64,000 nt of DNA from the NCBI RefSeq assembly GCF_003334305.1, contig NZ_QOWS01000004.1; one strand, 5' to 3'. Numbering within the stretch: the first letter of the stretch is position 1; each line of letters begins with the position of its first letter. Below are positions 1-47,808 of this stretch, one piece after another. The notes below the pieces were generated by a model. The model did no database searches. It worked only from the letters and a program-made list of their open reading frames with translations, and was not told where the DNA came from. Made by a program: the position numbers and the translations under genes. This DNA comes from Escherichia coli (lineage in GTDB: Bacteria > Pseudomonadota > Gammaproteobacteria > Enterobacterales > Enterobacteriaceae).

Positions 1-657
1 GAGCAGACCATCACAGACCGGTTTATCCCCGCTGGCGCGGGGAACACGCAGACTATAACGAGGGTCGCACGCGGATCATCGGTTTATCCCCGCTGGCGCG
101 GGGAACACTACCAAACCGGAATCTTTCCATATAACGGCGGCGGTTTATCCCCGCTGGCGCGGGGAACACTTACTCGCCGGGGAATACGCCCCGCGCCACG
201 CCGGTTTATCCCCGCTGGCGCGGGGAACACCTTACTCATTCAGAACGCTGCATGAAATATGCCGGTTTATCCCCGCTGGCGCGGGGAACACACCCTCCAG
301 ATCTCGGGTGTCGGTAATGAAAACGGTTTATCCCCGCTGGCGCGGGGAACACGAGCGCGTGCCGTGCCTGGGTTCATATGATGGCGGTTTATCCCCGCTG
401 GCGCGGGGAACACGTGGTTGTTTAGGCGGGATTTGTTGCGTAAGTCGGTTTATCCCCGCTGGCGCGGGGAACACCCATTTCATCATGAACGGCGGAAATA
501 TCGTGGCGGTTTATCCCCGCTGGCGCGGGGAACACTCGTTTCAGTTCAGTTAGATTTATATCCAGCGCGGTTTATCCCCGCTGGCGCGGGGAACACGCTG
601 GCCGTCGTTTTTACTCAGTAACCGCCAACGGTTTATCCCCGCTGGCGCGGGGAACAC
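1..657 (-). CRISPR. Type I-E CRISPR array, truncated by the window edge; 11 repeats and 10 complete 32-nt spacers
   Basis: 29-nt repeat CGGTTTATCCCCGCTGGCGCGGGGAACAC (plus-strand reading) at 19,80,141,202,263,324,385,446,507,568,629 with a constant 61-nt period; leader and cas2 lie at the 3' side on plus, so the array is transcribed on the minus strand. Confidence 0.97.
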
Positions 658-753
658 ACTAAGCATACATAACTGTTTTTAAACAAATTTATTCCGCATC
701 AACAATCTACCAACTAAATTAAAACATTTCCTTATTTTTAAAGAACGGATAAC
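658..753 (-). promoter_or_regulatory. CRISPR leader (AT-rich) between the last repeat and the cas2 stop
   Basis: AT-rich 96 nt immediately after the leader-proximal repeat; contains ACAATCTACCAACT, a motif shared with the leader of the second array. Confidence 0.8.
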
Positions 754-1963
<1,210 letters not shown>

Positions 1964-1967
<4 letters not shown>

Positions 1968-2614
1968 GCCTCTGCTCCGGGTTTGATCAGCATCAGACCA
2001 CAGCCGAACGCCCGGCTTTTGCCATACCCCTGACTGAGACGTTGCAGAAATAACCCGGGATCGGTGACCGTAAGCATCCCCGTATAATCCACGCTACTGA
2101 ACTGGATCAGTTGCCGGGTGTTTTCCCGCCGGGGTTGTTGTTGTCGGTAGGCATCAACCGAGGTATCCAGTAGTGTAAAACCACTTCTTTCCCCCTGCGC
2201 TGCCAGCCAGTCCAGCGCCGCCTGTTGTTGATGCAACCAGATATCACGCCCTTCCGCCTGCCCCTTCACCTGCCGTTTCGCCTCCATCAGCAGATCGTGG
2301 CGCTTGCCCGCTTTACAGATTGTTGGATTCGCCCGCAGGTTGAAACAAAGAGATTGTCCGGTACGCAGCTCGGACACAAATGGTCGGCATTCGATGGTGA
2401 AAGTTTCACTTTCCGCCGGGCGTGCCTGCGAGAGGACAAAAAAGCGAAACGCGCCCTGGAGTTCTTCCCGACGATAAAGAAATTGCCTTTCTTTGCCGCC
2501 AGGGAAGAGATCCCACAGCCACTGATGCATCACATATTCACCGCGATCCACCAGATGCAGCAACTGCGCAGGCGAAAGCTGGCCGGTATGTAAGGTTATT
2601 CTTGAGAGGTACAT
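1964..2614 (-). CDS. casE: Cas6e (CasE/Cse3) pre-crRNA endoribonuclease
   Basis: Start chosen at internal ATG giving MYLSRITLHTG... (216 aa) with AAGGAGG Shine-Dalgarno just upstream; conserved FNLRANP and GCGLM motifs; the annotated ORF extension to 2752 overlaps cas5 and is rejected. Confidence 0.85.
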
Positions 2615-3342
2615 GGTTCCTCCTTGCTGAGCCACGGCCCCTGATTGACGGTGCGTTCCCCAAACAGCCACTGCTGACGATTTAAAGGAACATCCCGGCG
2701 GCGTAATATTTTGCTCGCGACCAGGCCGTCGTGTTTCCCTTCCCACCAGCATTCATCCTGAAGTTTTGGGAGTGAGACTTTCAGTTTATGGAAATGATCC
2801 TGATACTGTTGGTATGCATTACATAAGGCATCACACGCGTTGCCTTCGAGCAGTAACGGCGCAAGAGGTAATGCCAGCGGATGACTTTTTCGCCCCAGAT
2901 AAAGCGGAAAAACTGGATGGCGTAAACCGTCCTGCAACTGTTCGAGGCTGTAAGGCGCATCGGCTGTTGTTGCCACCGCCACCATCCACCAGGCATCGGT
3001 GTAGTAGTCGCGCCGGGAGATAATCGCGCTCAAAAGCTCAGGGTCGCTCAACTCTTCGCGACGGCTGAAATAACGTGCTTTACGCACCTCTTTTGGCATC
3101 TGGACCGTGTGATAATCCCGTGCCCAGCGCGGGTTACGGCTGGCGCAAACCACCAGTGAATAGTGGCGATTAAACGCGTTTAAGCGTTCGGTATCATCAC
3201 GCCGAATCCCTACCCCGGCAGCCAGTAGCCCCAGCAATGCTGAGCGCGAAGGAAGTTCATGGGTATGACGAACTTCACCTGGAGCATCGCCCCCCCAGGA
3301 CGCCATCGGCCCATGAAGCTGAAAAATCAGATATTGGCTCAT
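2596..3342 (-). CDS. casD: Cas5e (CasD) Cascade subunit
   Basis: 248-aa ORF MSQYLIFQLHGPMASWG...; position between cas7 and cas6e. Confidence 0.9.
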   Translation of the reverse strand: MSQYLIFQLHGPMASWGGDAPGEVRHTHELPSRSALLGLLAAGVGIRRDDTERLNAFNRHYSLVVCASRNPRWARDYHTVQMPKEVRKARYFSRREELSDPELLSAIISRRDYYTDAWWMVAVATTADAPYSLEQLQDGLRHPVFPLYLGRKSHPLALPLAPLLLEGNACDALCNAYQQYQDHFHKLKVSLPKLQDECWWEGKHDGLVASKILRRRDVPLNRQQWLFGERTVNQGPWLSKEEPCTSQE

Positions 3343-3352
3343 AAGCCGCCCC

Positions 3353-4408
3353 TTACGCGCAGATAAAGTCCAGCACGTCCTTCATGCTTCCCTGTTTGTT
3401 CATCACGTCAAAACTTGCGCATTCGGTCTTCTGTTCGTAGACCGTATTCATGTTTTCGCGAAGCGTTGTAATACGCTGCACCGCCACATCTAACTGACGT
3501 GTGCCATTAATGGGTTCATAGAAAGCCGCCGCCAGAGAGCGTGGTTGATCGGTGCCTTTTTCTGCCAGCGCCCAGGAGGCGTAGGCACGGCTGGCAAAGC
3601 TGTTCTGTTTGCCGGTTGGGGAGACTTTAAGTGCGGCTTCCGTAAAGGCACGTATGGTCTGATTAGCTAACGCTTCGTCACCGCCAAGGTTTTCGACCAG
3701 CAGATCTTTATCAATGCAGATATAGGTGTAGAACAGTGCAGAACCGAATCCGGTTTCACCAAGATGCCCGGCACCGGCATCTTCAGAAGCCTGGCGCAAA
3801 TCATCAACGGCGGTGAAAAAATCATCTTCGACAATCGTTTCACTGACACCAAATGCGTGCGCTACCTGGCAGGCGGCTTCAACATTAAACTCGGGTTTAT
3901 TCGCCAGCATACGACCAGACATGGCAATATCTACCGCCATACGGTCTTTGCGTAACAACGCGAGATCTTCCTCTTTTGGCGCGCGCTTTTCTTCTGCAAG
4001 CTGATGGGCCAGCGCTTTTACGGCGTCAAATTCTGCCGGGCTGATATGGACTAACTGTTCAGTTTCGGCGTTAGTGAGCGGATCTTTTGGTTTTTTGTCG
4101 TTTTTAGCTTTCCCAAGATAATCTGCAATTTTTGCCGCCCATTCGATGGCTTTTTTCTCTTCGATTCCTTTCTCAATCAGGATAGTTGCCGCCTCACGCG
4201 CAATACGCCCACTGCGAATACCAATATGGCCCGCCAGTGCCTGTTCAAAAAGTGCAGAAGTGCGCCACGCACGTTTCAGACTTTTCGAGGAAACGCGCAG
4301 ACGCGTTGCTCCACCCAGCACCACAGTTTTTGGCGCACCGGTATCATCACGGTTAAGGTTGGCAGCAGGGTAAGCGGTTAACAAATGAAGCTGAATAAAT
4401 GTTGTCAT
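3353..4408 (-). CDS. casC: Cas7e (CasC) Cascade backbone subunit
   Basis: 351-aa ORF MTTFIQLHLLTAYPAANLNRDDTG... matches the Cas7e N-terminal signature. Confidence 0.92.
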   Translation of the reverse strand: MTTFIQLHLLTAYPAANLNRDDTGAPKTVVLGGATRLRVSSKSLKRAWRTSALFEQALAGHIGIRSGRIAREAATILIEKGIEEKKAIEWAAKIADYLGKAKNDKKPKDPLTNAETEQLVHISPAEFDAVKALAHQLAEEKRAPKEEDLALLRKDRMAVDIAMSGRMLANKPEFNVEAACQVAHAFGVSETIVEDDFFTAVDDLRQASEDAGAGHLGETGFGSALFYTYICIDKDLLVENLGGDEALANQTIRAFTEAALKVSPTGKQNSFASRAYASWALAEKGTDQPRSLAAAFYEPINGTRQLDVAVQRITTLRENMNTVYEQKTECASFDVMNKQGSMKDVLDFICA

Positions 4409-4419
4409 GAGATAGTCCT

Positions 4420-4956
4420 TTATTGATTTTGTTCGTTATCGGCGTCGCCAGCCTGGTAATATTCCAGCGCCCAGCGGATACGGATAAATTCGGTTGGCCG
4501 CTGCTGGCGGCGGTGATGATTGAGCAGGTCGTCGCTCTCCTGGCACCAACGGAAGACCCCCTCTGCCAGAGAGTCAAGATTGACGGAACCGTTTAATAAT
4601 CTGACTGCGCGGCGTAACTGGCGCAGTAATTCATCCGGTGTTTTTACTGCCGACAGACGAGTAAAACGCCCCTTTGACATTACCGCCGCCAGCTGCGCGG
4701 CAAAAGGCTGCCGTTCATCAATAGCTTTAACATTGGCGCTAACTGCGGCTATCAGCGCCAGTGCGGTGATACGCCACTCAGGTTCATCCTGCCACTTTAT
4801 TTGTCTGTTCTTCAGAAACAGGCGAAATCCATCCGTCAGACAAACATCATTAACCGTCGTACTACGCCGCAGACTGGCACGTTCGCCACGTTTCTCCTGC
4901 AATTCCTCGTGCCATTTGCGCAGCGTGGCTTTGTGCTCCTCTTTTACAATACTCAT
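4420..4956 (-). CDS. casB: Cse2 (CasB) Cascade small subunit
   Basis: 178-aa ORF between cse1 and cas7; start overlaps cse1 stop. Confidence 0.85.
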   Translation of the reverse strand: MSIVKEEHKATLRKWHEELQEKRGERASLRRSTTVNDVCLTDGFRLFLKNRQIKWQDEPEWRITALALIAAVSANVKAIDERQPFAAQLAAVMSKGRFTRLSAVKTPDELLRQLRRAVRLLNGSVNLDSLAEGVFRWCQESDDLLNHHRRQQRPTEFIRIRWALEYYQAGDADNEQNQ

Positions 4957-6515
4957 TCAGCAGCCTCCTGCTTTTTCTCCCTGGCGGCTTTAGCACTTTG
5001 CTTCTCCGCCGATGTTGTGAAATATTTCTTGCGCGCGGTCATAACGCGTTTCAAATCAACAGGCTCATATGGATTGGTGAATACACGCTCGTCAAAATCC
5101 TGACGCGCGAATAACCAAATTTCCTTTTGCCATTTGCCGAGTAATTCGTCCGCATCCTGACCTTCTTCAATTTGGCGCACTAACCTCAGGAAGCGATGCT
5201 GAGTTTTGTTCCAGAAGTCGATATCCACAAAACTGAAATCACCCCGTGCACCTTTTGGATCGGAGAACCACGCTTCTTTCAATGCACTTCGTAACAGACT
5301 TAGAATCCGTGAAGCCGTTTGCGCAGCCAGACGCAGTTTCGGTATCTGGCCTTCTTTTTTCTTGAGCAGCAGCGGGAAATGGTGTTCGTACCAACAGCGC
5401 GCTTTCATGTTGTCGAAATCATAGCCAAATCCCCACAGGCCTACTTTTGCCTGTTTCAGACTGCTGGCATTAAAGAGTTTCACCACCAGCGCGGGAAGTT
5501 CCGTATTGTTTTCTGATTTACCCGTTTCGATAAGGCCTAACCAGTCGCGCCAGATTAAACCGCCCGGTTGTGGTTTGACCGAGTAAAACTCGCCCCCCTC
5601 TTTAAGTGGTATACGGTAAGGCGTTAAGGGATGCTGCCACATGGCATAATTCGCACCGTAATTTTTGGTCGTCATCAGGCTCAGGAGCGCGTCGCTCTGT
5701 TCACCGCAAATATCGCAGTTGCCGACTGTCGTGGTATTAAAATCAATACGAATACGGCGCGGCATTCCCCAGTAAGCCTGGAGTTTATTGACCTGATCAT
5801 GGGTTACCACCGCACCGGCCAGTTCGCTGGTTCGCGTCGGGCCAAGCCAGGGGAAAACCAGATCGTCAAATTTTTTGGGTAGCGGTAAGTCGGCTTCATC
5901 CTGCGGCATCACATTGGGCCACAGTTTGCGCCACAAGGGCGTTTGTTGATTGCCTTGATATTCCTGTAATTCAATCAGAGTGGTCATCGGCCCACCGCCG
6001 CGCAAACCGGTGCGATAGCCTTTGCCGCCTGATGGCGCATTTAACTGTAGGGAGAACAGAGCTAACGCGGAACAATGAGGGCATACGTGTTCAGTCACGC
6101 CACGCTTAATAAAGTGGTCTTTATTAAACTTCGTTGTTTGAGCGCCGGGAATCTCAGGCAGTAGCGAAGCGACCTGAACTTTATCTCCCTTGAGCGCCTC
6201 GAAATCCTGCATAAATGAAGGGGAATCTGCCCCAAACTGGAAAGCGTGTTCTAAGGACAGCAATGCTTCCCGTAGCTTTTCAGCCTCCAGTCCGTCTTCC
6301 CAGATATCATCCCAACGACCGTGATTTTTGGGCGCGAAGCTGGTTTGTAGTAGCCCCAGCAAAAACTGCCAGGCCGCACCCTGGAGATCTGCCCGCGGCG
6401 CAGCGATATCGACAACATTTTCATCAGCCAGATCGACTGGTGCCAGCTTGCCTGTCGTTCCGTCTTTAAAACGAACAGGCAACCACGGGGTTGTCAGAAG
6501 TGAAAACGAGTTCAT
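4953..6515 (-). CDS. casA: Cse1 (CasA) Cascade large subunit
   Basis: Start taken at ATG giving MNSFSLLTTPWLPVRF... (520 aa), preceded by GAGAGG; the longer ORF to 6584 lacks an RBS; length and order fit Cse1. Confidence 0.85.
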   Translation of the reverse strand: MNSFSLLTTPWLPVRFKDGTTGKLAPVDLADENVVDIAAPRADLQGAAWQFLLGLLQTSFAPKNHGRWDDIWEDGLEAEKLREALLSLEHAFQFGADSPSFMQDFEALKGDKVQVASLLPEIPGAQTTKFNKDHFIKRGVTEHVCPHCSALALFSLQLNAPSGGKGYRTGLRGGGPMTTLIELQEYQGNQQTPLWRKLWPNVMPQDEADLPLPKKFDDLVFPWLGPTRTSELAGAVVTHDQVNKLQAYWGMPRRIRIDFNTTTVGNCDICGEQSDALLSLMTTKNYGANYAMWQHPLTPYRIPLKEGGEFYSVKPQPGGLIWRDWLGLIETGKSENNTELPALVVKLFNASSLKQAKVGLWGFGYDFDNMKARCWYEHHFPLLLKKKEGQIPKLRLAAQTASRILSLLRSALKEAWFSDPKGARGDFSFVDIDFWNKTQHRFLRLVRQIEEGQDADELLGKWQKEIWLFARQDFDERVFTNPYEPVDLKRVMTARKKYFTTSAEKQSAKAAREKKQEAAE

Positions 6516-6612
6516 ACGCATCCTCTCGTAAAAAAGACCATCCCAGGTCGGTTGTCCATCTTTCCATCCTTTTCGGTGTATCAACTATTCAGAGAGTCCT
6601 GTCGCAGACATC

Positions 6613-9312
6613 TCAACCAACCTTGCCAATCAATCCTTCCGTAGCCGAATACCCGCAACTTTCGTCATCGTTGACTAAAATCACGTTTGCCATCTCCGGA
6701 TCTTGTCGCTGTTCAATGCACCACAGCCTGAACGCCTCTCCCTCCAGTAAAGAAAACTCATCCCGATGTTTTTTCCACCAGCTTCGGCGCACTCTGACAA
6801 CGCTCATTTCCCATGCGTGAGCACCGGTGGCATAAGGCTTCACCACACCGTCAATACAGGTAGCCAGCCACAGGGAAACAGACTCCTCAGCCAGACGTGT
6901 CGACAGTTTTTCCGGGAGGTAATCGTTGATATTGGCGGCATAGCCGGGCCTGAAGTTCAGCACAAACTTTTTAGCCATTGCGCGATCGCAGTAATATTTG
7001 CCCACTTGCTCCTGCTCGCTGCGGGCAAATCCTTCCGGCATTACCACGTCCTCACCGTAGACGGATTCAATAAGAAGCCGGGCTGCGTATGGCATCTGAA
7101 TAGCACCTTGCTCACGCAGCACACGCTGCGTCAGCCAGATTCGCCCATGATCGGGATAGACAAATGCACTGTTACGCATGGCACTGCCAAACCATTCGTC
7201 GCCAGGAGAGTCGTCCCAGACGGGAGCCAGAATCAGCAATTCAGGGGGGGAACGCTCGTCCTTTCCGTCACGCTTTAACTGACCATTAATATCGCGGATA
7301 TGCCGCTGTAATCGTCCTGCTCGCTGAATCAGCAAATCAACAGGGGCCAGGTCGGAGATCATTTCGTCCAGGTCAATATCCACGCTTTGCTCAATTACTT
7401 GTGTACAAACAATGACTTGCGACGCTCTCTGTAAACTACAATATTTACCAAAGCGTGCCAGTGTCTCCGTTTCAATTCGCTGGCGATCGCTAAAAGCAAA
7501 GCGGCTATGAAAAAGTGAAAGGCTGGAAGCAGGAATGACGCCGCGGGCAAGCAGCTGACGATGAACCTTAATAGCGTCATCGACAGAATTCCGGATCCAG
7601 GCGATGCATTTCCCCTGACTTACCGCCGATTCGATACGCGCAATACACTCTTGTTCACTATGAAGCCAACCCACGCTGACGCTACGCTCAACGTCTTTGC
7701 GCGTCGCTACCCGGTGTGAGTTCACATCGGATTTCGTGACATGCGTCAGCCAGGGGTAATCATCCTTTTCCAGGAACGGAGCTTCTTGCAGGCCCTCTGT
7801 ACCCCGCGCAAAGGCAGCGACGAGTTTGTCGCGCTGCTGTTGAGATAACGTGGCAGAAAGCAAAATAACGCTGTTTCCGCCACGCGCCTGCCGCTCGATC
7901 AACCCTTCAAGAATGCACGACATGTAAGCGTCACAGGCGTGGATCTCATCAGCCAGCAGGATTTTGTTACTCAGCCCCAGAAGCCGCAGATTATTATGTT
8001 TGAACGGCATCACCGCCATCATCGCCTGATCCAGCGTGCCGACGCCAATTTCAGCCAGCAACGCCTTCTTGTTACTGTCGGCAAACCAGGCCGCACATCC
8101 CTGACTGAACGTTTGTTCATCCGGTTCTTCTGACCCGACTAAATCACCAGACCAGAGTGATTCATTAAAGCGGTCCATTAATGTGCGGGCACTATGTGCC
8201 AGCACCAGGCTGGGGCGGGATTCTGGCGAATAGAAAGCAAGCCAGGTTTTGACCAGCCGATCGTACATGGCATTGGCCGTTGCCATTGTTGGCAGACCAA
8301 AAAACAGCCCCTGAGCTTTCCCCGCAGCTATCAACCTGTGCGCCAGGATAAGCGCCGCTTCTGTTTTACCTGCGCCAGTCACATCTTCCAGAATAAATAA
8401 CTGCGGTCCTTGCTGGCTGATATCCAGATCCAGCACCTTTTGCTGTAACGGTGTCGGATTCTCAATAAAAGGAAACAGCGTATTAATTCCGTTGAAAGGC
8501 GCGACTTTTGCTTTTAGAGGAAAGACGGTTAAGGCGTTTTGAGCCTGAATTAAAGTTTTCTGCCAGTAACCTTTAATATCCATTGGGTGTGCGACGCGTG
8601 GAAAAAATCGCGTTGACGAACCCGTCCAGTCTGCGAGCACGACGGTTGCAGAGATATACCAGGAAAGGTGTTTTATAAGTTCAATGCCCTCATCATCATC
8701 CCAGAATGCGGGGATCTCTATGAGCGGAAACAGTGGTTTGATTTCAAGGAGAAAATCTCGTGCTGCAGCTTTGTCTTCAGGCAGAAAATTATCCAATTCA
8801 TCCATACGATCAGGGGGCCGACCATGATGCCCTGTCGTCACGGGCATCCACATTTCTATCACTCGCCTAAGTTTGCGCGGAGAGAGCGAAGATGAAGGAA
8901 GTAACTCCTGACATTCACTTAAATAATGATTCCACAACCAGTAGCCCAGCGTTGAATGAGAGATTTTTTCGTAATTTTTTCTGGCACCTTCCTGAATCTT
9001 GAGTTCAGGGGGCAGGTAAAGTTGTTGAAAAGAGCGGGCAAATTTTCCAATATCGTGCCAGCACAGCAACCAGGCGAAAAATTGAGCCGCCTGTTCCTTG
9101 TCAGAAATCCCTAATTGACGAAAATAATCAGCCAGCCCGAAGCAATTTCTTTTAACCATTAAATAGCCCATCGCGGCTACATCCAGCGAATGCCAGCAAA
9201 GAAGGTGATAGTCGTCGCCCCCGTCTTTCTCGCCGCGTCGGGTTTTTCCCCAGAAATCAAAAAAAGTCACAATATTTTTATCCTTCAGTAAACTTAAAGG
9301 ATATTTACGCAT
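6613..9312 (-). CDS. cas3: Cas3 HD nuclease / SF2 helicase
   Basis: 899-aa ORF; HD-type N-terminus (LLCWHSLDVAAMGYL), helicase motifs (DVTGAGKTEAA, DEIHACD); heads the cas operon. Confidence 0.95.
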   Translation of the reverse strand: MRKYPLSLLKDKNIVTFFDFWGKTRRGEKDGGDDYHLLCWHSLDVAAMGYLMVKRNCFGLADYFRQLGISDKEQAAQFFAWLLCWHDIGKFARSFQQLYLPPELKIQEGARKNYEKISHSTLGYWLWNHYLSECQELLPSSSLSPRKLRRVIEMWMPVTTGHHGRPPDRMDELDNFLPEDKAAARDFLLEIKPLFPLIEIPAFWDDDEGIELIKHLSWYISATVVLADWTGSSTRFFPRVAHPMDIKGYWQKTLIQAQNALTVFPLKAKVAPFNGINTLFPFIENPTPLQQKVLDLDISQQGPQLFILEDVTGAGKTEAALILAHRLIAAGKAQGLFFGLPTMATANAMYDRLVKTWLAFYSPESRPSLVLAHSARTLMDRFNESLWSGDLVGSEEPDEQTFSQGCAAWFADSNKKALLAEIGVGTLDQAMMAVMPFKHNNLRLLGLSNKILLADEIHACDAYMSCILEGLIERQARGGNSVILLSATLSQQQRDKLVAAFARGTEGLQEAPFLEKDDYPWLTHVTKSDVNSHRVATRKDVERSVSVGWLHSEQECIARIESAVSQGKCIAWIRNSVDDAIKVHRQLLARGVIPASSLSLFHSRFAFSDRQRIETETLARFGKYCSLQRASQVIVCTQVIEQSVDIDLDEMISDLAPVDLLIQRAGRLQRHIRDINGQLKRDGKDERSPPELLILAPVWDDSPGDEWFGSAMRNSAFVYPDHGRIWLTQRVLREQGAIQMPYAARLLIESVYGEDVVMPEGFARSEQEQVGKYYCDRAMAKKFVLNFRPGYAANINDYLPEKLSTRLAEESVSLWLATCIDGVVKPYATGAHAWEMSVVRVRRSWWKKHRDEFSLLEGEAFRLWCIEQRQDPEMANVILVNDDESCGYSATEGLIGKVG

Positions 9313-9506: not shown

Positions 9507-9659
9507 CTACTTCTTCGATTCGTAAGCGAGAACTGCCTTAAACTCCATACCACGTTCTCTGATACTCAACTCACACAACGAGTCGCCTACCATCAGCGTG
9601 AATCCCAGTACTGTAAAACACAGCACTATGATTGCCACAAGGGCATATTTTGTCAGCAT
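9507..9659 (-). CDS. Hok/Gef-family type I toxin (50 aa)
   Basis: Hand translation of minus strand: [50 protein letters not shown]; hydrophobic N-terminal helix plus the Hok signature SLCE-x-E-x-A-x-AYES; GGGAGG SD 6 nt upstream; same position as sokX in K-12 as recalled; not in the supplied ORF track (under 60 aa). Confidence 0.8.
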
Positions 9660-9757
9660 GTCTTGCCTCCCTGCAAAGAAGAGACTAACATTCGAATTGT
9701 TTGGGTTCGAACGTAAGCCTCAGGTTGATAGAAATATCGCCTGGGGCTTTTGTCCAT
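9653..9757 (-). CDS. mok-like upstream ORF (34 aa), translationally coupled to hok
   Basis: ATG preceded by GAGG; [34 protein letters not shown]; its TGA stop overlaps hok codons 1-2 (ACATGCTGA), the arrangement typical of hok/mok loci. Confidence 0.45.
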
Positions 9758-9865
9758 CTGGAACCTCGCGAATGCTTAACGCCAGACAGCCTCAAGCACC
9801 CGACGCCATTCTATACCTGATAATTCTTCCAGCGGCGTTCACGTTTAAAATCAGGAATACTGCTC

Positions 9866-26357: not shown

Positions 26358-26935
26358 TGGTTTATCCCCGCTGGCGCGGGGAGCTCAACATCGGAAACGG
26401 CTTCGCGGCGGCGGCGTCCGGTTTATCCCCGCTGGCGCGGGGAGCTCTACGTGAAGAATATTTGCAACACCCGCAAGAACGGTTTATCCCCGCTGGCGCG
26501 GGGAGCTCGGCATAGCCAGGCTGATCCGGCGACGGCCTTACGGTTTATCCCCGCTGGCGCGGGGAACACTGTTCGGCGGGGCGGTAGTACCACTGTTTTT
26601 TCGGTTTATCCCCGCTGGCGCGGGGAACACATCAACATGCAGCGCGAACGGCTGCCCCTCGCCGGTTTATCCCCGCTGGCGCGGGGAACACTCTTATTCA
26701 GTCCCCTTTTCCATCTGCTGTGGCGGTTTATCCCCGCTGGCGCGGGGAACACGTAAATTGCGACGTCCTGCGCCAGTAATTCAACGGTTTATCCCCGCTG
26801 GCGCGGGGAACACGATGCGGCAGCGGCGGCGGGAAGTTATCGCGGCGGTTTATCCCCGCTGGCGCGGGGAACACCTTTCAATATAGTCAGAAAAGTCTTT
26901 TGGCAACGGTTTATCCCCGCTGGCGCGGGGAACAC
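26358..26935 (-). CRISPR. Type I-E CRISPR array 2: 10 repeats, 9 spacers of 32 nt
   Basis: Repeats at 26358,26419,26480,26541,26602,26663,26724,26785,26846,26907; the three leader-distal repeats end GAGCTC rather than GAACAC; leader at the 3' side on plus, so minus-strand transcription. Confidence 0.97.
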
Positions 26936-33944: not shown

Positions 33945-36179
33945 CTAACTCCCGTGCAACCGACGCGCGTCGATAACATCCGGCACCTGGTTGAGTTTAC
34001 CCAGCACGCGGCCCAGCACCTGCAGGTTGTAAATCTCAATGGTCATGTCGATGGTTGCCAGTTGCTGTTTGGTGTCGCTACGGCTGGCAACACCAAGCAC
34101 GTTCACCTTCTCGTTGGCGAGAATGGTCGTGATATCACGTAACAACCCACTACGATCATTAGCCACCACGCGGACCACCAGCGAATATCCGGCGGAGTAG
34201 CTCTCACCCCATACCGCGTCAACAATGCGTTCTGGCGCATGGGAGCGCAGTTCCGCCAGTTGTTCGCAATCGGCGCGGTGTACTGAAATACCGCGCCCCT
34301 GGGTAATGAAGCCGACAATCTCATCTCCAGGAATCGGCTGGCAGCAGCGCGCGATGTGGTGCATCAGGTTGCCAACACCTTCGACCACCACGCGACCGTT
34401 ATCTTTACTGCGGTTTTGCGGCGTGTAGCTTTTTTGCTGAAGTTGCTTCAGCGCGGCGGCGTCCTGCTCTTCGGCACTCGGCTTATTAAATTGCGATTGC
34501 AGGAAGTTCACCATCTGATTGAGACGGATATCCCCGCCACCAATCGCCGCCAGCAACTCGTCGACATCATTAAAGTTGTAACGCGGCAGCAGATGTTTTT
34601 CTGCTTCTTTCAGGCTGATCCCCAGATGTTCCAGCTCGTCGTCAAGGATTTGCCGCCCAGCCAGAATGTTTTTGTCACGGTCCTGTTTACGGAACCAGGC
34701 GTGAATTTTCGAACGCCCACGGCTGGTTGTGACGTAACCGAGGTTTGGGTTTAACCAGTCACGGCTGGGGTTCGGCTGTTTCTGGGTGATAATTTCAATC
34801 TGGTCGCCCATCTGCAGCTGGTAGGTGAACGGCACAATGCGCCCGCCAATTTTTGCCCCGATGCAGCGGTGTCCGACATCACTGTGGATGTGGTAAGCGA
34901 AGTCCAGCGGCGTTGATCCCGCAGGCAAATCAACGACATCACCTTTCGGCGTAAAGACATACACCCGGTCGTCAAAGACCTGGCTGCGTACTTCGTCGAG
35001 CATTTCGCCGGAATCAGCCATCTCTTCCTGCCACGCAATCAGTTTACGCAGCCAGGCAATCCGGTCTTCATGTCCCGAACGTGCGCCGCCAGCTGCCGCG
35101 CCCTCTTTATATTTCCAGTGCGCAGCAACACCCAACTCTGCATCTTCATGCATCTGTTTGGTGCGGATTTGGATCTCAACGGTTTTGCCACCTGGCCCCA
35201 GAACCACGGTATGAATAGACTGATAACCGTTTGGTTTCGGGTTAGCGACATAATCGTCAAACTCATCCGGCAGGTGGCGATAGTGAGTGTGCACTATCCC
35301 CAGTGCGGCATAACAATCCTGTAAACGCTCGGCGACAATACGTACCGCACGCACATCAAACAGCTCATCGAAGGCGAGGTTCTTTTTCTGCATTTTGCGC
35401 CAGATGCTGTAGATGTGTTTCGGTCGACCATACACTTCAGCTTTAACGCCTTCAGCTTTCATCTCAGCGCGCAGATGGCCGACAAACTCTTCGATATAGT
35501 GTTCGCGGTCGAGACGGCGTTCATGCAGCAGTTTTGCGATGCGTTTGTATTCGGTCGGGTGGAGATAACGGAAGCAGTAATCTTCCAGCTCCCATTTCAG
35601 TTGCCCAATCCCAAGACGGTTCGCCAACGGCGCGTAGATATTGGTGCACTCTTTTGCCGCCAGTACGCGTTCATCTTCCGGCGCATCTTTTACTTCGCGC
35701 AGATGAGCAATACGCTCCGCCAGTTTGATGACCACGCAGCGAAAATCATCGACCATCGCCAATAACATCCGGCGAACGTTATCGACCTGTTCGGAGGAAA
35801 CAGAATCAGTGTGCGTCGCTTTCAGCTGGCGGATCGCCGCCATATCACGCACGCCGTGAATAAGGTTAACAACCGACTTACCGACGCTCTCACGCAGCAC
35901 ATCTTCGCTAACTACGTTGGCATCAGCCAGAGGGAACAGCAGCGCCGCCCGCAGCGTGTCAATGTCCATACTTAATGTCGAGAGGATCTCCACCATCTCA
36001 ACACCACGCCACAATAACAGACTGGCATCCGGATGCCCCTGCGTCTGTTGCAGACAATACGCCCAGGTTTCGGCTAAGCACTCACACGACTTCTGGCTGG
36101 TAATACCCAGACTTGCGATCCATTTTTCCGGATCAAATTCACCAGCCTTATTGATATGTGCACTTCTTACCGCAACCAT
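33945..36179 (-). CDS. relA: GTP pyrophosphokinase ((p)ppGpp synthetase I)
   Basis: 744-aa ORF MVAVRSAHINKAGEFDPEKWIASLGI... Confidence 0.98.
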   Translation of the reverse strand: MVAVRSAHINKAGEFDPEKWIASLGITSQKSCECLAETWAYCLQQTQGHPDASLLLWRGVEMVEILSTLSMDIDTLRAALLFPLADANVVSEDVLRESVGKSVVNLIHGVRDMAAIRQLKATHTDSVSSEQVDNVRRMLLAMVDDFRCVVIKLAERIAHLREVKDAPEDERVLAAKECTNIYAPLANRLGIGQLKWELEDYCFRYLHPTEYKRIAKLLHERRLDREHYIEEFVGHLRAEMKAEGVKAEVYGRPKHIYSIWRKMQKKNLAFDELFDVRAVRIVAERLQDCYAALGIVHTHYRHLPDEFDDYVANPKPNGYQSIHTVVLGPGGKTVEIQIRTKQMHEDAELGVAAHWKYKEGAAAGGARSGHEDRIAWLRKLIAWQEEMADSGEMLDEVRSQVFDDRVYVFTPKGDVVDLPAGSTPLDFAYHIHSDVGHRCIGAKIGGRIVPFTYQLQMGDQIEIITQKQPNPSRDWLNPNLGYVTTSRGRSKIHAWFRKQDRDKNILAGRQILDDELEHLGISLKEAEKHLLPRYNFNDVDELLAAIGGGDIRLNQMVNFLQSQFNKPSAEEQDAAALKQLQQKSYTPQNRSKDNGRVVVEGVGNLMHHIARCCQPIPGDEIVGFITQGRGISVHRADCEQLAELRSHAPERIVDAVWGESYSAGYSLVVRVVANDRSGLLRDITTILANEKVNVLGVASRSDTKQQLATIDMTIEIYNLQVLGRVLGKLNQVPDVIDARRLHGS

Positions 36180-37584: not shown

Positions 37585-40341
37585 ATGACCAACTACAGCC
37601 TGCGCGCACGCATGATGATTCTGATCCTGGCACCGACCGTCCTTATTGGTTTATTGCTGAGTATCTTTTTCGTCGTGCATCGCTATAACGACTTGCAGCG
37701 TCAACTGGAAGATGCCGGTGCCAGCATTATTGAGCCGCTTGCAGTTTCTACTGAATATGGCATGAGCCTGCAAAATCGCGAATCTATCGGTCAGTTAATA
37801 AGCGTACTGCATCGTCGCCATTCCGATATTGTTCGCGCGATTTCGGTTTATGATGAAAATAACCGACTCTTTGTCACCTCCAATTTTCATCTTGATCCCT
37901 CATCAATGCAGCTCGGCAGCAACGTGCCGTTTCCTCGCCAGCTCACTGTCACTCGTGACGGCGATATTATGATCCTCCGCACGCCGATTATTTCTGAGAG
38001 TTACTCCCCCGACGAATCGCCCAGTAGCGATGCCAAAAATAGTCAAAATATGTTGGGATATATTGCGCTTGAGCTGGATCTTAAATCGGTTCGCTTGCAG
38101 CAATATAAAGAGATCTTTATTTCCAGCGTGATGATGCTGTTTTGTATCGGTATTGCGCTTATTTTTGGCTGGCGCTTAATGCGCGATGTAACCGGTCCGA
38201 TTCGCAACATGGTGAATACCGTCGACCGCATCCGTCGCGGGCAACTCGACAGCCGGGTGGAAGGATTTATGCTCGGCGAGCTGGATATGCTGAAAAACGG
38301 TATCAACTCGATGGCAATGTCGCTGGCTGCTTATCACGAAGAGATGCAGCACAATATCGACCAGGCGACGTCCGATCTGCGTGAAACGCTGGAGCAGATG
38401 GAAATTCAGAACGTTGAGTTAGATCTGGCGAAAAAGCGCGCCCAGGAAGCGGCGCGTATTAAATCCGAGTTTCTGGCAAATATGTCACACGAGCTGCGTA
38501 CACCACTGAATGGTGTTATTGGCTTTACCCGCCTGACGCTGAAAACAGAATTAACACCAACGCAGCGCGATCACCTGAATACGATTGAACGTTCGGCAAA
38601 TAATTTGCTGGCAATTATTAATGATGTTCTCGACTTCTCGAAACTGGAAGCAGGTAAGCTGATTCTGGAAAGTATTCCATTCCCACTACGCAGCACGCTG
38701 GATGAAGTCGTTACTCTGCTGGCACATTCTTCTCACGATAAAGGGTTGGAACTGACGCTCAATATTAAAAGCGACGTGCCTGATAACGTGATCGGCGACC
38801 CACTGCGATTACAGCAAATCATCACTAACCTGGTGGGGAATGCAATTAAATTCACCGAGAATGGCAACATTGATATTCTGGTAGAAAAACGTGCGCTGAG
38901 TAATACCAAAGTGCAGATTGAAGTGCAGATTCGGGATACCGGCATTGGTATTCCTGAACGCGATCAATCGCGCTTATTCCAGGCCTTCCGACAGGCTGAT
39001 GCCAGTATTTCCCGCCGTCATGGTGGCACCGGTCTGGGGCTGGTGATTACACAAAAACTGGTTAATGAAATGGGCGGCGATATTTCGTTCCATAGCCAGC
39101 CGAATCGCGGTTCAACTTTCTGGTTCCACATTAATCTCGATCTGAACCCGAACATTATTATCGAAGGGCCATCCACCCAGTGCCTCGCCGGTAAGCGCCT
39201 GGCCTATGTCGAACCAAACTCCGCAGCAGCGCAATGCACGCTGGATATTTTAAGTGAAACGCCGCTGGAAGTGGTTTATAGCCCAACGTTCTCCGCGCTG
39301 CCTCCCGCGCATTACGACATGATGTTGTTAGGCATCGCGGTGACCTTCCGCGAGCCGCTAACAATGCAACATGAGCGATTAGCGAAAGCGGTATCGATGA
39401 CCGATTTCCTGATGCTGGCACTTCCTTGCCATGCACAAGTCAATGCAGAAAAACTCAAGCAAGATGGTATCGGCGCGTGTCTGCTGAAACCATTAACACC
39501 TACGCGCCTGTTGCCTGCCCTGACGGAATTTTGTCATCACAAACAAAACACGCTTTTGCCTGTAACCGATGAAAGCAAGCTGGCAATGACAGTCATGGCA
39601 GTTGATGACAACCCCGCTAACCTGAAACTTATCGGCGCATTGCTGGAAGATATGGTGCAACATGTGGAACTTTGCGATAGCGGGCATCAGGCGGTTGAAC
39701 GGGCGAAACAGATGCCGTTCGATTTGATCTTAATGGATATTCAAATGCCTGACATGGATGGCATTCGGGCCTGCGAGCTCATCCACCAGCTCCCCCATCA
39801 GCAACAAACGCCGGTTATCGCGGTAACGGCGCATGCAATGGCCGGGCAAAAAGAGAAGCTGCTTGGCGCAGGGATGAGCGATTATCTGGCGAAACCGATT
39901 GAAGAAGAGCGATTGCATAATTTGTTGTTGCGCTACAAGCCTGGCAGCGGTATTTCCTCTCGCGTCGTGACGCCCGAAGTCAACGAAATTGTGGTGAACC
40001 CGAATGCGACCCTCGACTGGCAACTGGCACTACGCCAGGCAGCAGGAAAAACCGATTTAGCGCGCGATATGCTGCAAATGTTACTCGATTTCCTGCCTGA
40101 AGTTCGCAACAAAGTTGAGGAACAGCTGGTTGGAGAAAACCCGGAAGGCCTGGTTGATTTGATTCATAAACTGCATGGCAGTTGCGGCTATAGCGGTGTG
40201 CCGCGTATGAAGAATCTCTGCCAACTGATCGAACAACAGCTACGTAGCGGTACTAAAGAAGAAGATTTGGAGCCGGAGCTGCTGGAACTGTTGGACGAGA
40301 TGGATAATGTAGCGCGCGAAGCCAGCAAAATTCTCGGGTAA
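37585..40341 (+). CDS. barA: Hybrid sensor histidine kinase BarA
   Basis: 918-aa ORF; HAMP, HisKA (SHELRTPLN), HATPase, receiver and HPt domains. Confidence 0.97.
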
Positions 40342-45529: not shown

Positions 45530-46312
45530 TTAGGAACTTATCTCTCCATCCTGACCCGATGGCGCACTGAACTCAACCCTTTCATTTTCAGGAAGCAGAC
45601 CGCGCCAGCCAAATTGTGATAACGCCTGCATCCAGGTGTCGTCCAGGCCCGCGTGAATAGTCAGCGGCTCGCCAGTAAAAGGATGCGTCAATGACAACTG
45701 ACTGGCATGTAGCATTAACCGCTGGAGGCCAAAATGCTCAGCACCGCTGCGATTCTGGCGTAAATCGCCATGTTTGCTATCGCCAATAATCGGATGACGC
45801 AAATGGGCAAGATGTCGGCGAAGCTGATGTTTGCGTCCGGTTTTCGGCTCCAGTTCCACCAGGCCGTAGCGCGTGGTCGGGTAACGTCCGGTCGCTACCG
45901 GCATTTCTACGGTCGCCAGACCGCGATAATGCGTCACTGCTGGCTGCGAGCCTTTATCTTCGCGGGCAAATTTATCAGCGATTTTGTCCAGTTCTTCCAC
46001 CAGTGGATAATCCAGAACTGCTTCTTCCATCAACCAGCCGCGCACAATCGCATGGTAACGTTTCTGGATTTGGTGCTGTTCAAACTGTTGTGCCAGCAGC
46101 CGTCCGGCCTCGCTGGATAATCCCATCAACAACACACCAGAAGTGGGTCGGTCCAGACGATGAGCGGTAAAAACGTGCTGGCCAATCTGATCACGCACGG
46201 TTTGCATGACCACTACTTTCTCGTCGCGATCCAGCCAGCTGCGGTGAACCAGCCAGCCGGAGGGTTTATTTACCGCAACCAGCCATTCATCCTGATAGAG
46301 TATTTCCAGCAT
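45530..46312 (-). CDS. truC: tRNA pseudouridine(65) synthase
   Basis: 260-aa [28 protein letters not shown]... with RluA-family HRLDRPTSG motif. Confidence 0.93.
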
Positions 46313-46641
46313 TAGCTCGCATCATCCGCAAAAAGAGCATCCAGTTTTTCCAGCTCAGCCAGAATAAGCGCGCGTTGCGGATGGTCCGTCGCCAGCGCCA
46401 TTTCATAATAGGGTGCAACGGCAAAAGCGCCCGGTAACGGCTGTTTGTTATCTAACAAATCGTGCATTCGCGGGATCAGCACCCACTGCAACCACTCCAG
46501 TGGTTCCATGGTGTCCATAAAGAACGGTTGGGTACTATTAAATTGATGCGGCTGGGGTTCATCGTTTCGCCAGTGCTGATGTTCACGCAGTAACGCTTCA
46601 AGCGCCTGCAACTGGAGACGAACGCGGTCATGAGTGGTCAT
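46312..46641 (-). CDS. yqcC: DUF446-type small protein
   Basis: 109-aa ORF; overlaps the truC start. Confidence 0.85.
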   Translation of the reverse strand: MTTHDRVRLQLQALEALLREHQHWRNDEPQPHQFNSTQPFFMDTMEPLEWLQWVLIPRMHDLLDNKQPLPGAFAVAPYYEMALATDHPQRALILAELEKLDALFADDAS

Positions 46642-46685
46642 AAAGCAACCTCAATAAGAAAAACTGCCGCGAAGGATAGCAGGAA

Positions 46686-47052
46686 TAAAAAAAGGGAGCA
46701 CTGTATTCACAGCGCTCCCGGTTCGTTTCGCAGCATTCCAGCTACTTTTGTTGCTCCCTGCTCATCCTTGACAACTTTTCCTCTGGCCTTGCGGCCAATC
46801 GTTCATCCTGAACTATTGCTTCCTGCTCACACCACCCCGATGTGATACTTCATCCTGAAGTGTCCCTGGCCTTCCTGACCCACCGAATCATCCTGACCGG
46901 TTCTCATTCTCCATCCTGGAGGTGTCCTTTAACGCGTCCTGCGTCATCCTCTTCGCTTCATCCAGAAGCCTTTCCCTGAAACACCATCCTGGTGTGTCCT
47001 GCAGAAGTGTCATCATCCTGATGTTCACTTCGTTGTCTGACTCCCTGTCGAC
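46686..47052 (-). ncRNA. csrB: CsrB small RNA (CsrA-sequestering)
   Basis: Minus strand begins GTCGACAGGGAGTCAGACAACGAAG and carries many CAGGAUG/AGGAUG GGA motifs (plus-strand catcctg repeats); ends with hairpin GGGAGCGCTGTGAATACAGTGCTCCC + U8 at 46686-46725. Confidence 0.95.
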
Positions 47053-47225
47053 GAAGATAGAATCGTCTTTTTCGCGAAGTCTTACAAGGCGCTTACAGAC
47101 AATGCCTTAAGGAAAATTTCATATGAAAGTTAAGAATTAACAATCAACATTTTGATTTTAAATGAAAATAACGATTCTTATCTTTTTAAGTATTCGCTTA
47201 TTTCCTGGCGATCTCCTACAGAGTC

Positions 47226-47243
47226 TGTAAGAGATCTCTCACA
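47226..47243. promoter_or_regulatory. UvrY (SirA) binding box upstream of csrB
   Basis: Reverse complement reads TGTGAGAGATCTCTTACA, an 18-bp near-palindrome about 175 bp upstream of the csrB 5' end. Confidence 0.75.
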
Positions 47244-47262: not shown

Positions 47263-47808
47263 TTACAGAAGAGGCTTAAGTTGATTAAGGAATTCCGCAA
47301 GATTTGAGGCTAAATGCGTCCGTTTACGTGTTCCCAGCGTCTCTTTGCACACTTCACCGGAGAGATTACACACCGAGATGACCTCTAACTCTTCTTCCAG
47401 CGTCGCGATAAATAGCGTGGGCGGCAGTTTTAGCCTTTTCTGAGTCACCAGATGACCAATCAGATTTTCCTGCACCCGACGGAAGTCGTCTTCACTCCAG
47501 GTTTGCAGCAATGTCAGTTTGATATCGCCAAACTGCGCGTGCATATCCCCGGCAAACTGAGTCGTATAAAAGGTATGAATTGTGGGTTGTATCACAATAT
47601 CAAAAGCGCGTTCAACCGCGTTTACATTTTGTTCCCCGGTAAACGGCTGGGGTTGCCAGTATACGGCATCTTCGGTAGTTGAAATAATGCACGGTGAAGG
47701 AACACCGTACAGTTCCTCACTTAACGGCCAGCTTTTATGCTCTTCATGCCACGCATCGCAGTAGCGTGCAGTAAAATCTTTCAGGGCTTGTGCGGTCAAA
47801 TCGTCCAC
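47263..47808 (-). CDS. syd: SecY-interacting protein Syd
   Basis: 181-aa [45 protein letters not shown]... Confidence 0.93.

Follow-up and report, generated by a model that had tools for sequence, protein, structure and literature searches.

The minus strand of the window (the whole stretch of 64,000 nucleotides of Escherichia coli DNA that was analysed) carries the csrB small RNA gene at 46684..47052, 369 nt long, with its 5′ end a G at 47052 and its 3′ end in the U-tail at 46684. Two genes on the same strand flank it, both present in the ORF list and annotated in K-12 and RefSeq: upstream, syd, which encodes a SecY-interacting protein (47263..47808) and ends, with its stop codon, 19 nt short of the UvrY box described below; and downstream, yqcC (46312..46641), which starts 42 nt beyond the csrB 3′ end. 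The gene order syd-csrB-yqcC-truC is that of K-12, and the window csrB is identical at 369/369 positions to b4408, the ncRNA annotated as csrB in E. coli K-12 MG1655, sharing with it the same GGA sites, hairpin array, terminator, and neighbours, as well as an identical region from box to +1. Over the 3 kb compared with K-12 there are 15 differences, 0 of them in csrB or the syd-csrB intergenic region; those nearest to the locus are one SNP in a silent region of syd (47416) and others in truC and queF. The original prediction had described a 367-nt minus-strand RNA gene from 46686 that matches E. coli csrB. Gene, strand, and match are all borne out, the last base for base and by a full-length Rfam match; the length is 369 rather than 367 nt, the annotated 3′ end lying 2 nt deeper in the U-tail than 46686, a trivial difference.

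The wider neighborhood is likewise that of K-12: window positions 9657-64000 are collinear with K-12 2887311-2941471 at 98-99% identity. Within this stretch lies barA, the sensor kinase gene (37585..40341, plus strand), a 918-aa ORF collinear with K-12 barA (b2786) and located ~6.3 kb from csrB. We also note that barA and relA (33945..36179, minus strand, 744 aa) are both upstream inputs to csrB transcription, and that the two lie ~6.3-13 kb from csrB, as in K-12. Elsewhere in the collinear stretch, the two megablast segments against K-12 overlap at window 26724-26752, mapping to K-12 2904196-2904407, a sign that the DNA between ygcE and queE differs by a small indel or a repeat.

Upstream of csrB lies the distal UvrY/SirA box TGTGAGAGATCTCTTACA, an 18-bp near-perfect inverted repeat matched exactly at 47226..47243 on the minus strand; on the csrB strand (47243..47226) it occupies -191..-174 relative to 47052. 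The box agrees with the UvrY/SirA (GacA-type) consensus TGTAAGNNNNNNCTTACA, and it is the sole site within 3 mismatches in the 64 kb, where shuffles give 0.02. It had been predicted to be intact, and it is, in sequence and in position as published; it had also been predicted to lie about 175 bp upstream, which holds for its near edge at -174, whereas its centre lies at -183/-182. Zere et al. 2015 (PMC4682653) describe the same 18-nt inverted repeat in E. coli csrB, with the same centre, as protected by UvrY-P in DNase I footprints and as the strongest UvrY ChIP-exo target, in a BarA-dependent manner; set against that csrB site and the Salmonella SirA site, the window box has the same 18 bases and the same centre, with no difference. 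A second, partial UvrY half-site, TGTAGGAGA, can be read at 47212..47220 on the minus strand, 5 bp downstream of the box, and PMC4682653 also describes a partially conserved TGTAGGAGA 5 bp 3′ of the box. When nine genera were aligned from box to +1 for promoter-region conservation, the TGT..GA.AT.G of this second half-site proved invariant in all 9, though it had been no selection criterion. UvrY-P would be expected to bind the window box as it binds in the published experiments on the identical K-12 sequence, from which this step is taken.

How unusual is an intact box? The csrB region is present in 5,426/5,426 complete E. coli genomes, the promoter region once per genome, and of the 5,426, 4,417 have the same 39-mer around the box as the window, 1,007 have it with one base changed, and 2 with more changes; in 3/3 sampled genomes with one mismatch, the change falls outside the 18-bp box. 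Almost every E. coli genome therefore has an intact box, and finding one in the window is unremarkable.

A few genomes depart from this pattern. In 22 of the 5,426, the csrB region is not covered to 80% or more by any single match, and 1 of the 5,426 csrB-region matches falls on a plasmid-labelled record, a replicon that is probably mislabelled. In the swine isolate E. coli 1919D62 (L002, NZ_CP046009.1), csrB is interrupted after nt ~94 by an IS3-family element (3392-4970, with a transposase CDS at 3465-4642). In E. coli A1.S1.18 (L123, ~470-486), one base of the UvrY box is substituted and 1 bp is lost, so that it reads TGTGAGATAT-TCTTACA. We rejected this damaged box as a lineage variant, it being found in 1 assembly among 5,426; the same assembly also has a shortened terminator T-run, and a sequencing error is therefore as likely as a real box mutation.

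An intact csrB and box need not by themselves mean a working circuit: uvrY, csrA, or csrD could be mutated or missing in this strain, leaving csrB silent or without targets. All three genes are outside the window, and natural loss of csrB does occur, as the IS3-family element in 1919D62 attests; but barA in the window has its full length of 918 aa, many wild-type isolates have the identical locus, and BarA-UvrY and CsrA belong to the core functions of E. coli, so that we give a broken circuit only a very slight chance.

Beyond E. coli, other Gammaproteobacteria have the exact 18-mer box at 120 loci or more. An Rfam CsrB match accompanies the box in 27 of the 36 exact-box loci that were scanned among the matches listed; and, among those listed matches for which both flanks were available (103 exact-box loci), at least 12 GGA within 370 nt are found downstream of the box in 70/103 and upstream in 8. 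The spacing is conserved as well: in Enterobacterales (Citrobacter, Enterobacter, Klebsiella, Pluralibacter, Kosakonia, Serratia, Pantoea, Erwinia, Dickeya, Brenneria, Edwardsiella, Rouxiella, and E. albertii), the distance from the near edge of the box to the first base of the CsrB match is 164-202 nt, and in most it is ~183, as in the window. The exact E. coli box adjoins CsrB-family genes in Vibrio and Photobacterium too. In several species the exact box string is on the strand opposite csrB, which fits a near-palindrome that binds a dimer. The roughly one-third of loci that are GGA-poor downstream of the box were considered as a separate site class, and rejected as such; Rfam puts csrB on the other side in most of them.

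Some of these loci have features of their own. The Photobacterium indicum locus (L080, 2618-4512) and two others (L069 and L020) contain 2-3 tandem, adjoining CsrB-family copies, and in L080 the exact E. coli-type box sits between the copies. In 7 of the 36 scanned exact-box loci (L007, L031, L055, L061, L062, L074, and L076), whose sources are Vibrio, Hahellaceae, Kangiellaceae, and Pseudomonadales MAGs, no Rfam CsrB match was found anywhere in the locus. Shewanella gelidimarina (L029) and L091 likewise have no Rfam match, yet each has 27 GGA in the 370 nt that follow the box. Such loci may hold Csr RNAs that have diverged, may be targets of UvrY/GacA of another kind, or may have the box by chance.

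The arrangement in which a distal palindrome for a response regulator drives a sponge RNA made of GGA hairpins is shared with csrC, rsmY/rsmZ, and Vibrio csrB1-3, where it takes the form of GacA/VarA upstream activating sequences; these are, however, different RNAs from csrB, shorter, with fewer GGA sites, and located elsewhere in the genome. According to PMC4682653, the csrC inverted repeat is less symmetric than that of csrB, and IHF is not needed there.

The comparison across genera also bears on whether the 18-bp palindrome is a regulatory site of csrB at all, rather than a hairpin or terminator at the 3′ end of the syd mRNA, or a chance palindrome. It does come directly after syd and on the same strand, and in a transcript it could fold into a 7-bp stem around a GATC loop. 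Nevertheless, i) no T-run follows the palindrome, nor is it among the terminators called by the scan; ii) the chance expectation is 0.02 per window; iii) the identical sequence has been footprinted with UvrY-P in vitro and crosslinked in vivo, as reported in PMC4682653; and iv) the exact box adjoins CsrB across genera, in either orientation to the gene, which fits a DNA site for a dimer and not an RNA hairpin of a neighboring gene. We rejected a syd terminator as the identity of the box on the missing T-run, the negative scan, and the contradicting published footprint, and regard either a syd hairpin or a chance palindrome as extremely improbable.

Taking the box as the distal UvrY site of csrB, a pattern search finds an IHF-consensus site between it and the promoter (WATCAANNNNTTR on both strands, AATCAAAATGTTGATT; 47142..47157, or about -105..-90). 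Its position agrees with that of the putative IHF site which PMC4682653 places between two UvrY crosslink regions; the same paper gives csrB expression as ~10-fold dependent on IHF. The CAA....TT core of the site is invariant across 9 genera. IHF would be predicted to bind here by analogy with the published experiments on the identical K-12 sequence. Within E. coli the site is polymorphic: 1,384 of the 5,426 genomes, O157:H7 included, have AAAAACAACATGTTGCTTG, which (as compared in E. coli 319, NZ_CP018241.1) disrupts the WATCAA core on both strands and retains CAA....TT. The allele found in the window is that of K-12.

With the annotated 5′ end and the conservation across genera as guides, we infer a core promoter at 47059..47087 on the minus strand, with a putative -35 hexamer TTGTAA (47087..47082), a 17-nt spacer, and a putative -10 hexamer GATTCT (47064..47059). 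Conservation extends to TTGTAAGAC at -35 and GATTCTAT at -10 across 8-9 genera, and to GTCGACAGGGAGTC at the csrB start in the nine-genus alignment. A strict consensus scan found no sigma-70 promoter upstream of csrB; the hexamers match the sigma-70 consensus weakly, which is what one expects of an activator-dependent promoter, and the negative scan fits such a promoter but does not confirm one.

Two copies of TGTAAG, which resembles half of the box, can be read near the promoter (47081..47097, minus strand), at -45..-40 (47097..47092) and at -34..-29 (47086..47081). The copy at -34..-29 overlaps the -35 hexamer and is conserved across genera, the half-site TTGTAAGAC that overlaps the -35 (-35..-27) being conserved in 8/9; the copy at -45..-40 is conserved in Escherichia and Citrobacter only. 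Both fall within -56..+25, which is given in PMC4682653 as the promoter-proximal UvrY ChIP-exo crosslink region, a region that the in vitro footprint did not reproduce and at which, by the same account, the full inverted repeat is not preserved; the passages of the paper that were consulted make no mention of TGTAAG half-sites in csrB. Any role for a TGTAAG half-site near -35 is one that we infer. It is conceivable, though rather unlikely, that the half-sites are the true promoter-proximal contact of UvrY, with the dimer on the distal box delivered to them by the IHF bend; contact of UvrY with TGTAAG would then explain the in vivo crosslink at -56..+25. If true, such a contact would refine a known mechanism, and would define no new system.

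Turning to the RNA itself, the 369 nt of csrB contain 22 GGA, 14 AGGA, 8 AGGATG, and 6 CAGGATG. Dinucleotide shuffles of csrB give 0.10 +/- 0.31 CAGGATG (max 2) and 4.8 +/- 2.0 AGGA (max 12), and 14 AGGA per 369 nt is the maximum for the window over both strands of the 64 kb, where the mean is ~1. The RNA had been described as dense in CAGGAUG-type CsrA sites, and so it is, with 6 CAGGATG against 0.1 in shuffles and 22 GGA in total. An array of 11 short hairpins spans 46730..47023 on the minus strand, with a GGA in each loop, mostly as CAGGAUG or AGGAU, and further GGA in the single-stranded linkers between the hairpins. A count of GGA motifs in hairpin loops had been proposed as a check, and when the hairpins are parsed from the Rfam consensus, all 11 of the 11 non-terminator consensus hairpins are positive, with loop GGA at csrB nt 35, 64, 90, 114, 137, 160, 178, 198, 230, 286, and 314. 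All 54/54 Rfam consensus pairs are standard pairs in the window csrB. The minimum free energy of csrB is -120.7 kcal/mol (z = -3.85; 0/100 shuffles fold as well), and this independent fold has 9 GGA at hairpin apices and 7 others in unpaired stretches. The GGA in hairpin loops and linkers are, judging from motif and fold, the predicted CsrA binding sites. Work by Liu et al. in 1997 is said to have found that CsrB binds and sequesters CsrA. CsrA binding and sequestration have been published for the identical K-12 CsrB RNA by Vakulskas et al. 2016 (PMC5027483), who describe a 369-nt CsrB with GGA sites numbered 1-22, site 22 being within the terminator stem; the window csrB has the same GGA count (22) and numbering.

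The whole-window Rfam scan, proposed at the outset as a check and as the possible refutation, gave a CsrB (RF00018) match at 46684..47043 on the minus strand with 380.4 bits and E = 1.2e-110, far over the gathering score of 71 and spanning the full model (positions 1-356/356). Clan competition in Rfam retains the single best match per clan, and CsrC shares the clan of CsrB. The window ORF list and the K-12 and RefSeq annotations have no annotated ORF over csrB, in line with the earlier remark that the gene is absent from the ORF track; RefSeq PGAP records leave csrB unlabelled, the features beneath the match being syd and yqcC alone, or none. The idea that the GGA-rich stretch is another Csr/Rsm clan member, such as CsrC, or a small-protein gene has in its favor the shared Rfam clan and mechanical ORFs of 45-71 aa that overlap csrB, but CsrB is the best match in the clan at 380 bits, the sequence is identical to b4408, and neither the K-12 nor the RefSeq annotation includes any of these ORFs, and we rejected both identities as having a vanishingly small probability.

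The csrB gene ends in an intrinsic terminator (46684..46719, minus strand) that reads GGGAGCGCTG-TGAATA-CAGTGCTCCC and then TTTTTTTATT, and that is found both by the terminator scan and as helix 12 of the Rfam consensus. The terminator scan gives a stem at 46719..46694 of 11 bp, 7 of them G-C, with a 4-nt loop, followed by T7 (TTTTTTTATT), in keeping with the canonical terminator of the original prediction; GGA site 22 (nt 335) is inside this stem. Immediately upstream, a 3′ turnover-control segment can be placed at 46720..46757 on the minus strand by mapping positions from PMC5027483 onto the identical sequence. GGA site 20 is at 46757..46755 (nt 296) and site 21 at 46739..46737 (nt 314), and the RNase E cleavage positions A327 (46726) and A331 (46722) are both A in the window csrB, in an unstructured stretch after GGA sites 20/21 and immediately upstream of the terminator. 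CsrA on GGA sites 20 and 21 has been found to shield CsrB from RNase E (PMC5027483). Sequestration of CsrA and the decay pathway would be expected to operate on the window RNA, both being steps that come from experiments published for the same sequence in K-12.

Several other loci in the window deserve a brief description. A CRISPR array of ~10 repeats with a 61-nt period lies at 19-669, and a complete type I-E cas operon within 1-9312 on the minus strand (cas2 754-1047, cas1 1047-1967, cas6e, cas5, cas7, cse2, cse1, and cas3 6613-9312). Megablast found no similarity between window 1-9312 and the cas region that K-12 has at this place in the chromosome, and the strain therefore has the other I-E cas allele. 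An Rfam sok match of 113 bits (9644-9801, minus strand) overlaps the start of an intact Hok-like ORF of 50 aa (9507-9659, minus strand), whereas between cas3 and cysH K-12 has only a 59-nt sokX remnant annotated. Scans of the window for tandem repeats and tRNAs found nothing relevant.

We conclude that the window locus is, with near certainty, the chromosomal E. coli csrB, with activation by UvrY from a distal site, sequestration of CsrA, and turnover by RNase E. The sequence has no feature that speaks against this reading. The sequence identity, structure, motif content, box, position, synteny, and conservation of the locus are established here. If the published work on K-12 carries over, the system would operate as follows: i) BarA would phosphorylate UvrY, and a UvrY-P dimer would bind the 18-bp inverted repeat at -183/-182; ii) IHF would bind its consensus at about -100 and bend the DNA, so that the distant activator could act at the promoter; iii) csrB would be transcribed from a weak, activator-dependent sigma-70 promoter; iv) the 369-nt CsrB would go untranslated and display 22 GGA, of which short hairpins present 11 in their loops, and would sequester CsrA dimers on its GGA sites, as in published work on the identical K-12 sequence; and v) decay would begin with an RNase E cut in the unstructured stretch immediately 5′ of the terminator, with CsrA at sites 20/21 guarding the cleavage stretch and CsrD overriding that protection.

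The observation is thus confirmed and its first interpretation supported; the corrections, to the length of the gene and to the reference point for the box distance, are trivial. We wish to stress that the csrB locus and its published upstream UvrY site are already known, and that nothing here is new. The original prediction had called the locus expected rather than novel, and csrB and its UvrY box are indeed identical to the published K-12 sequence; there is no new biology in it because sequence, regulation, and mechanism have already been worked out experimentally on the identical sequence. CsrB is nonetheless a major global regulator, and is therefore needed in any annotation of the window.
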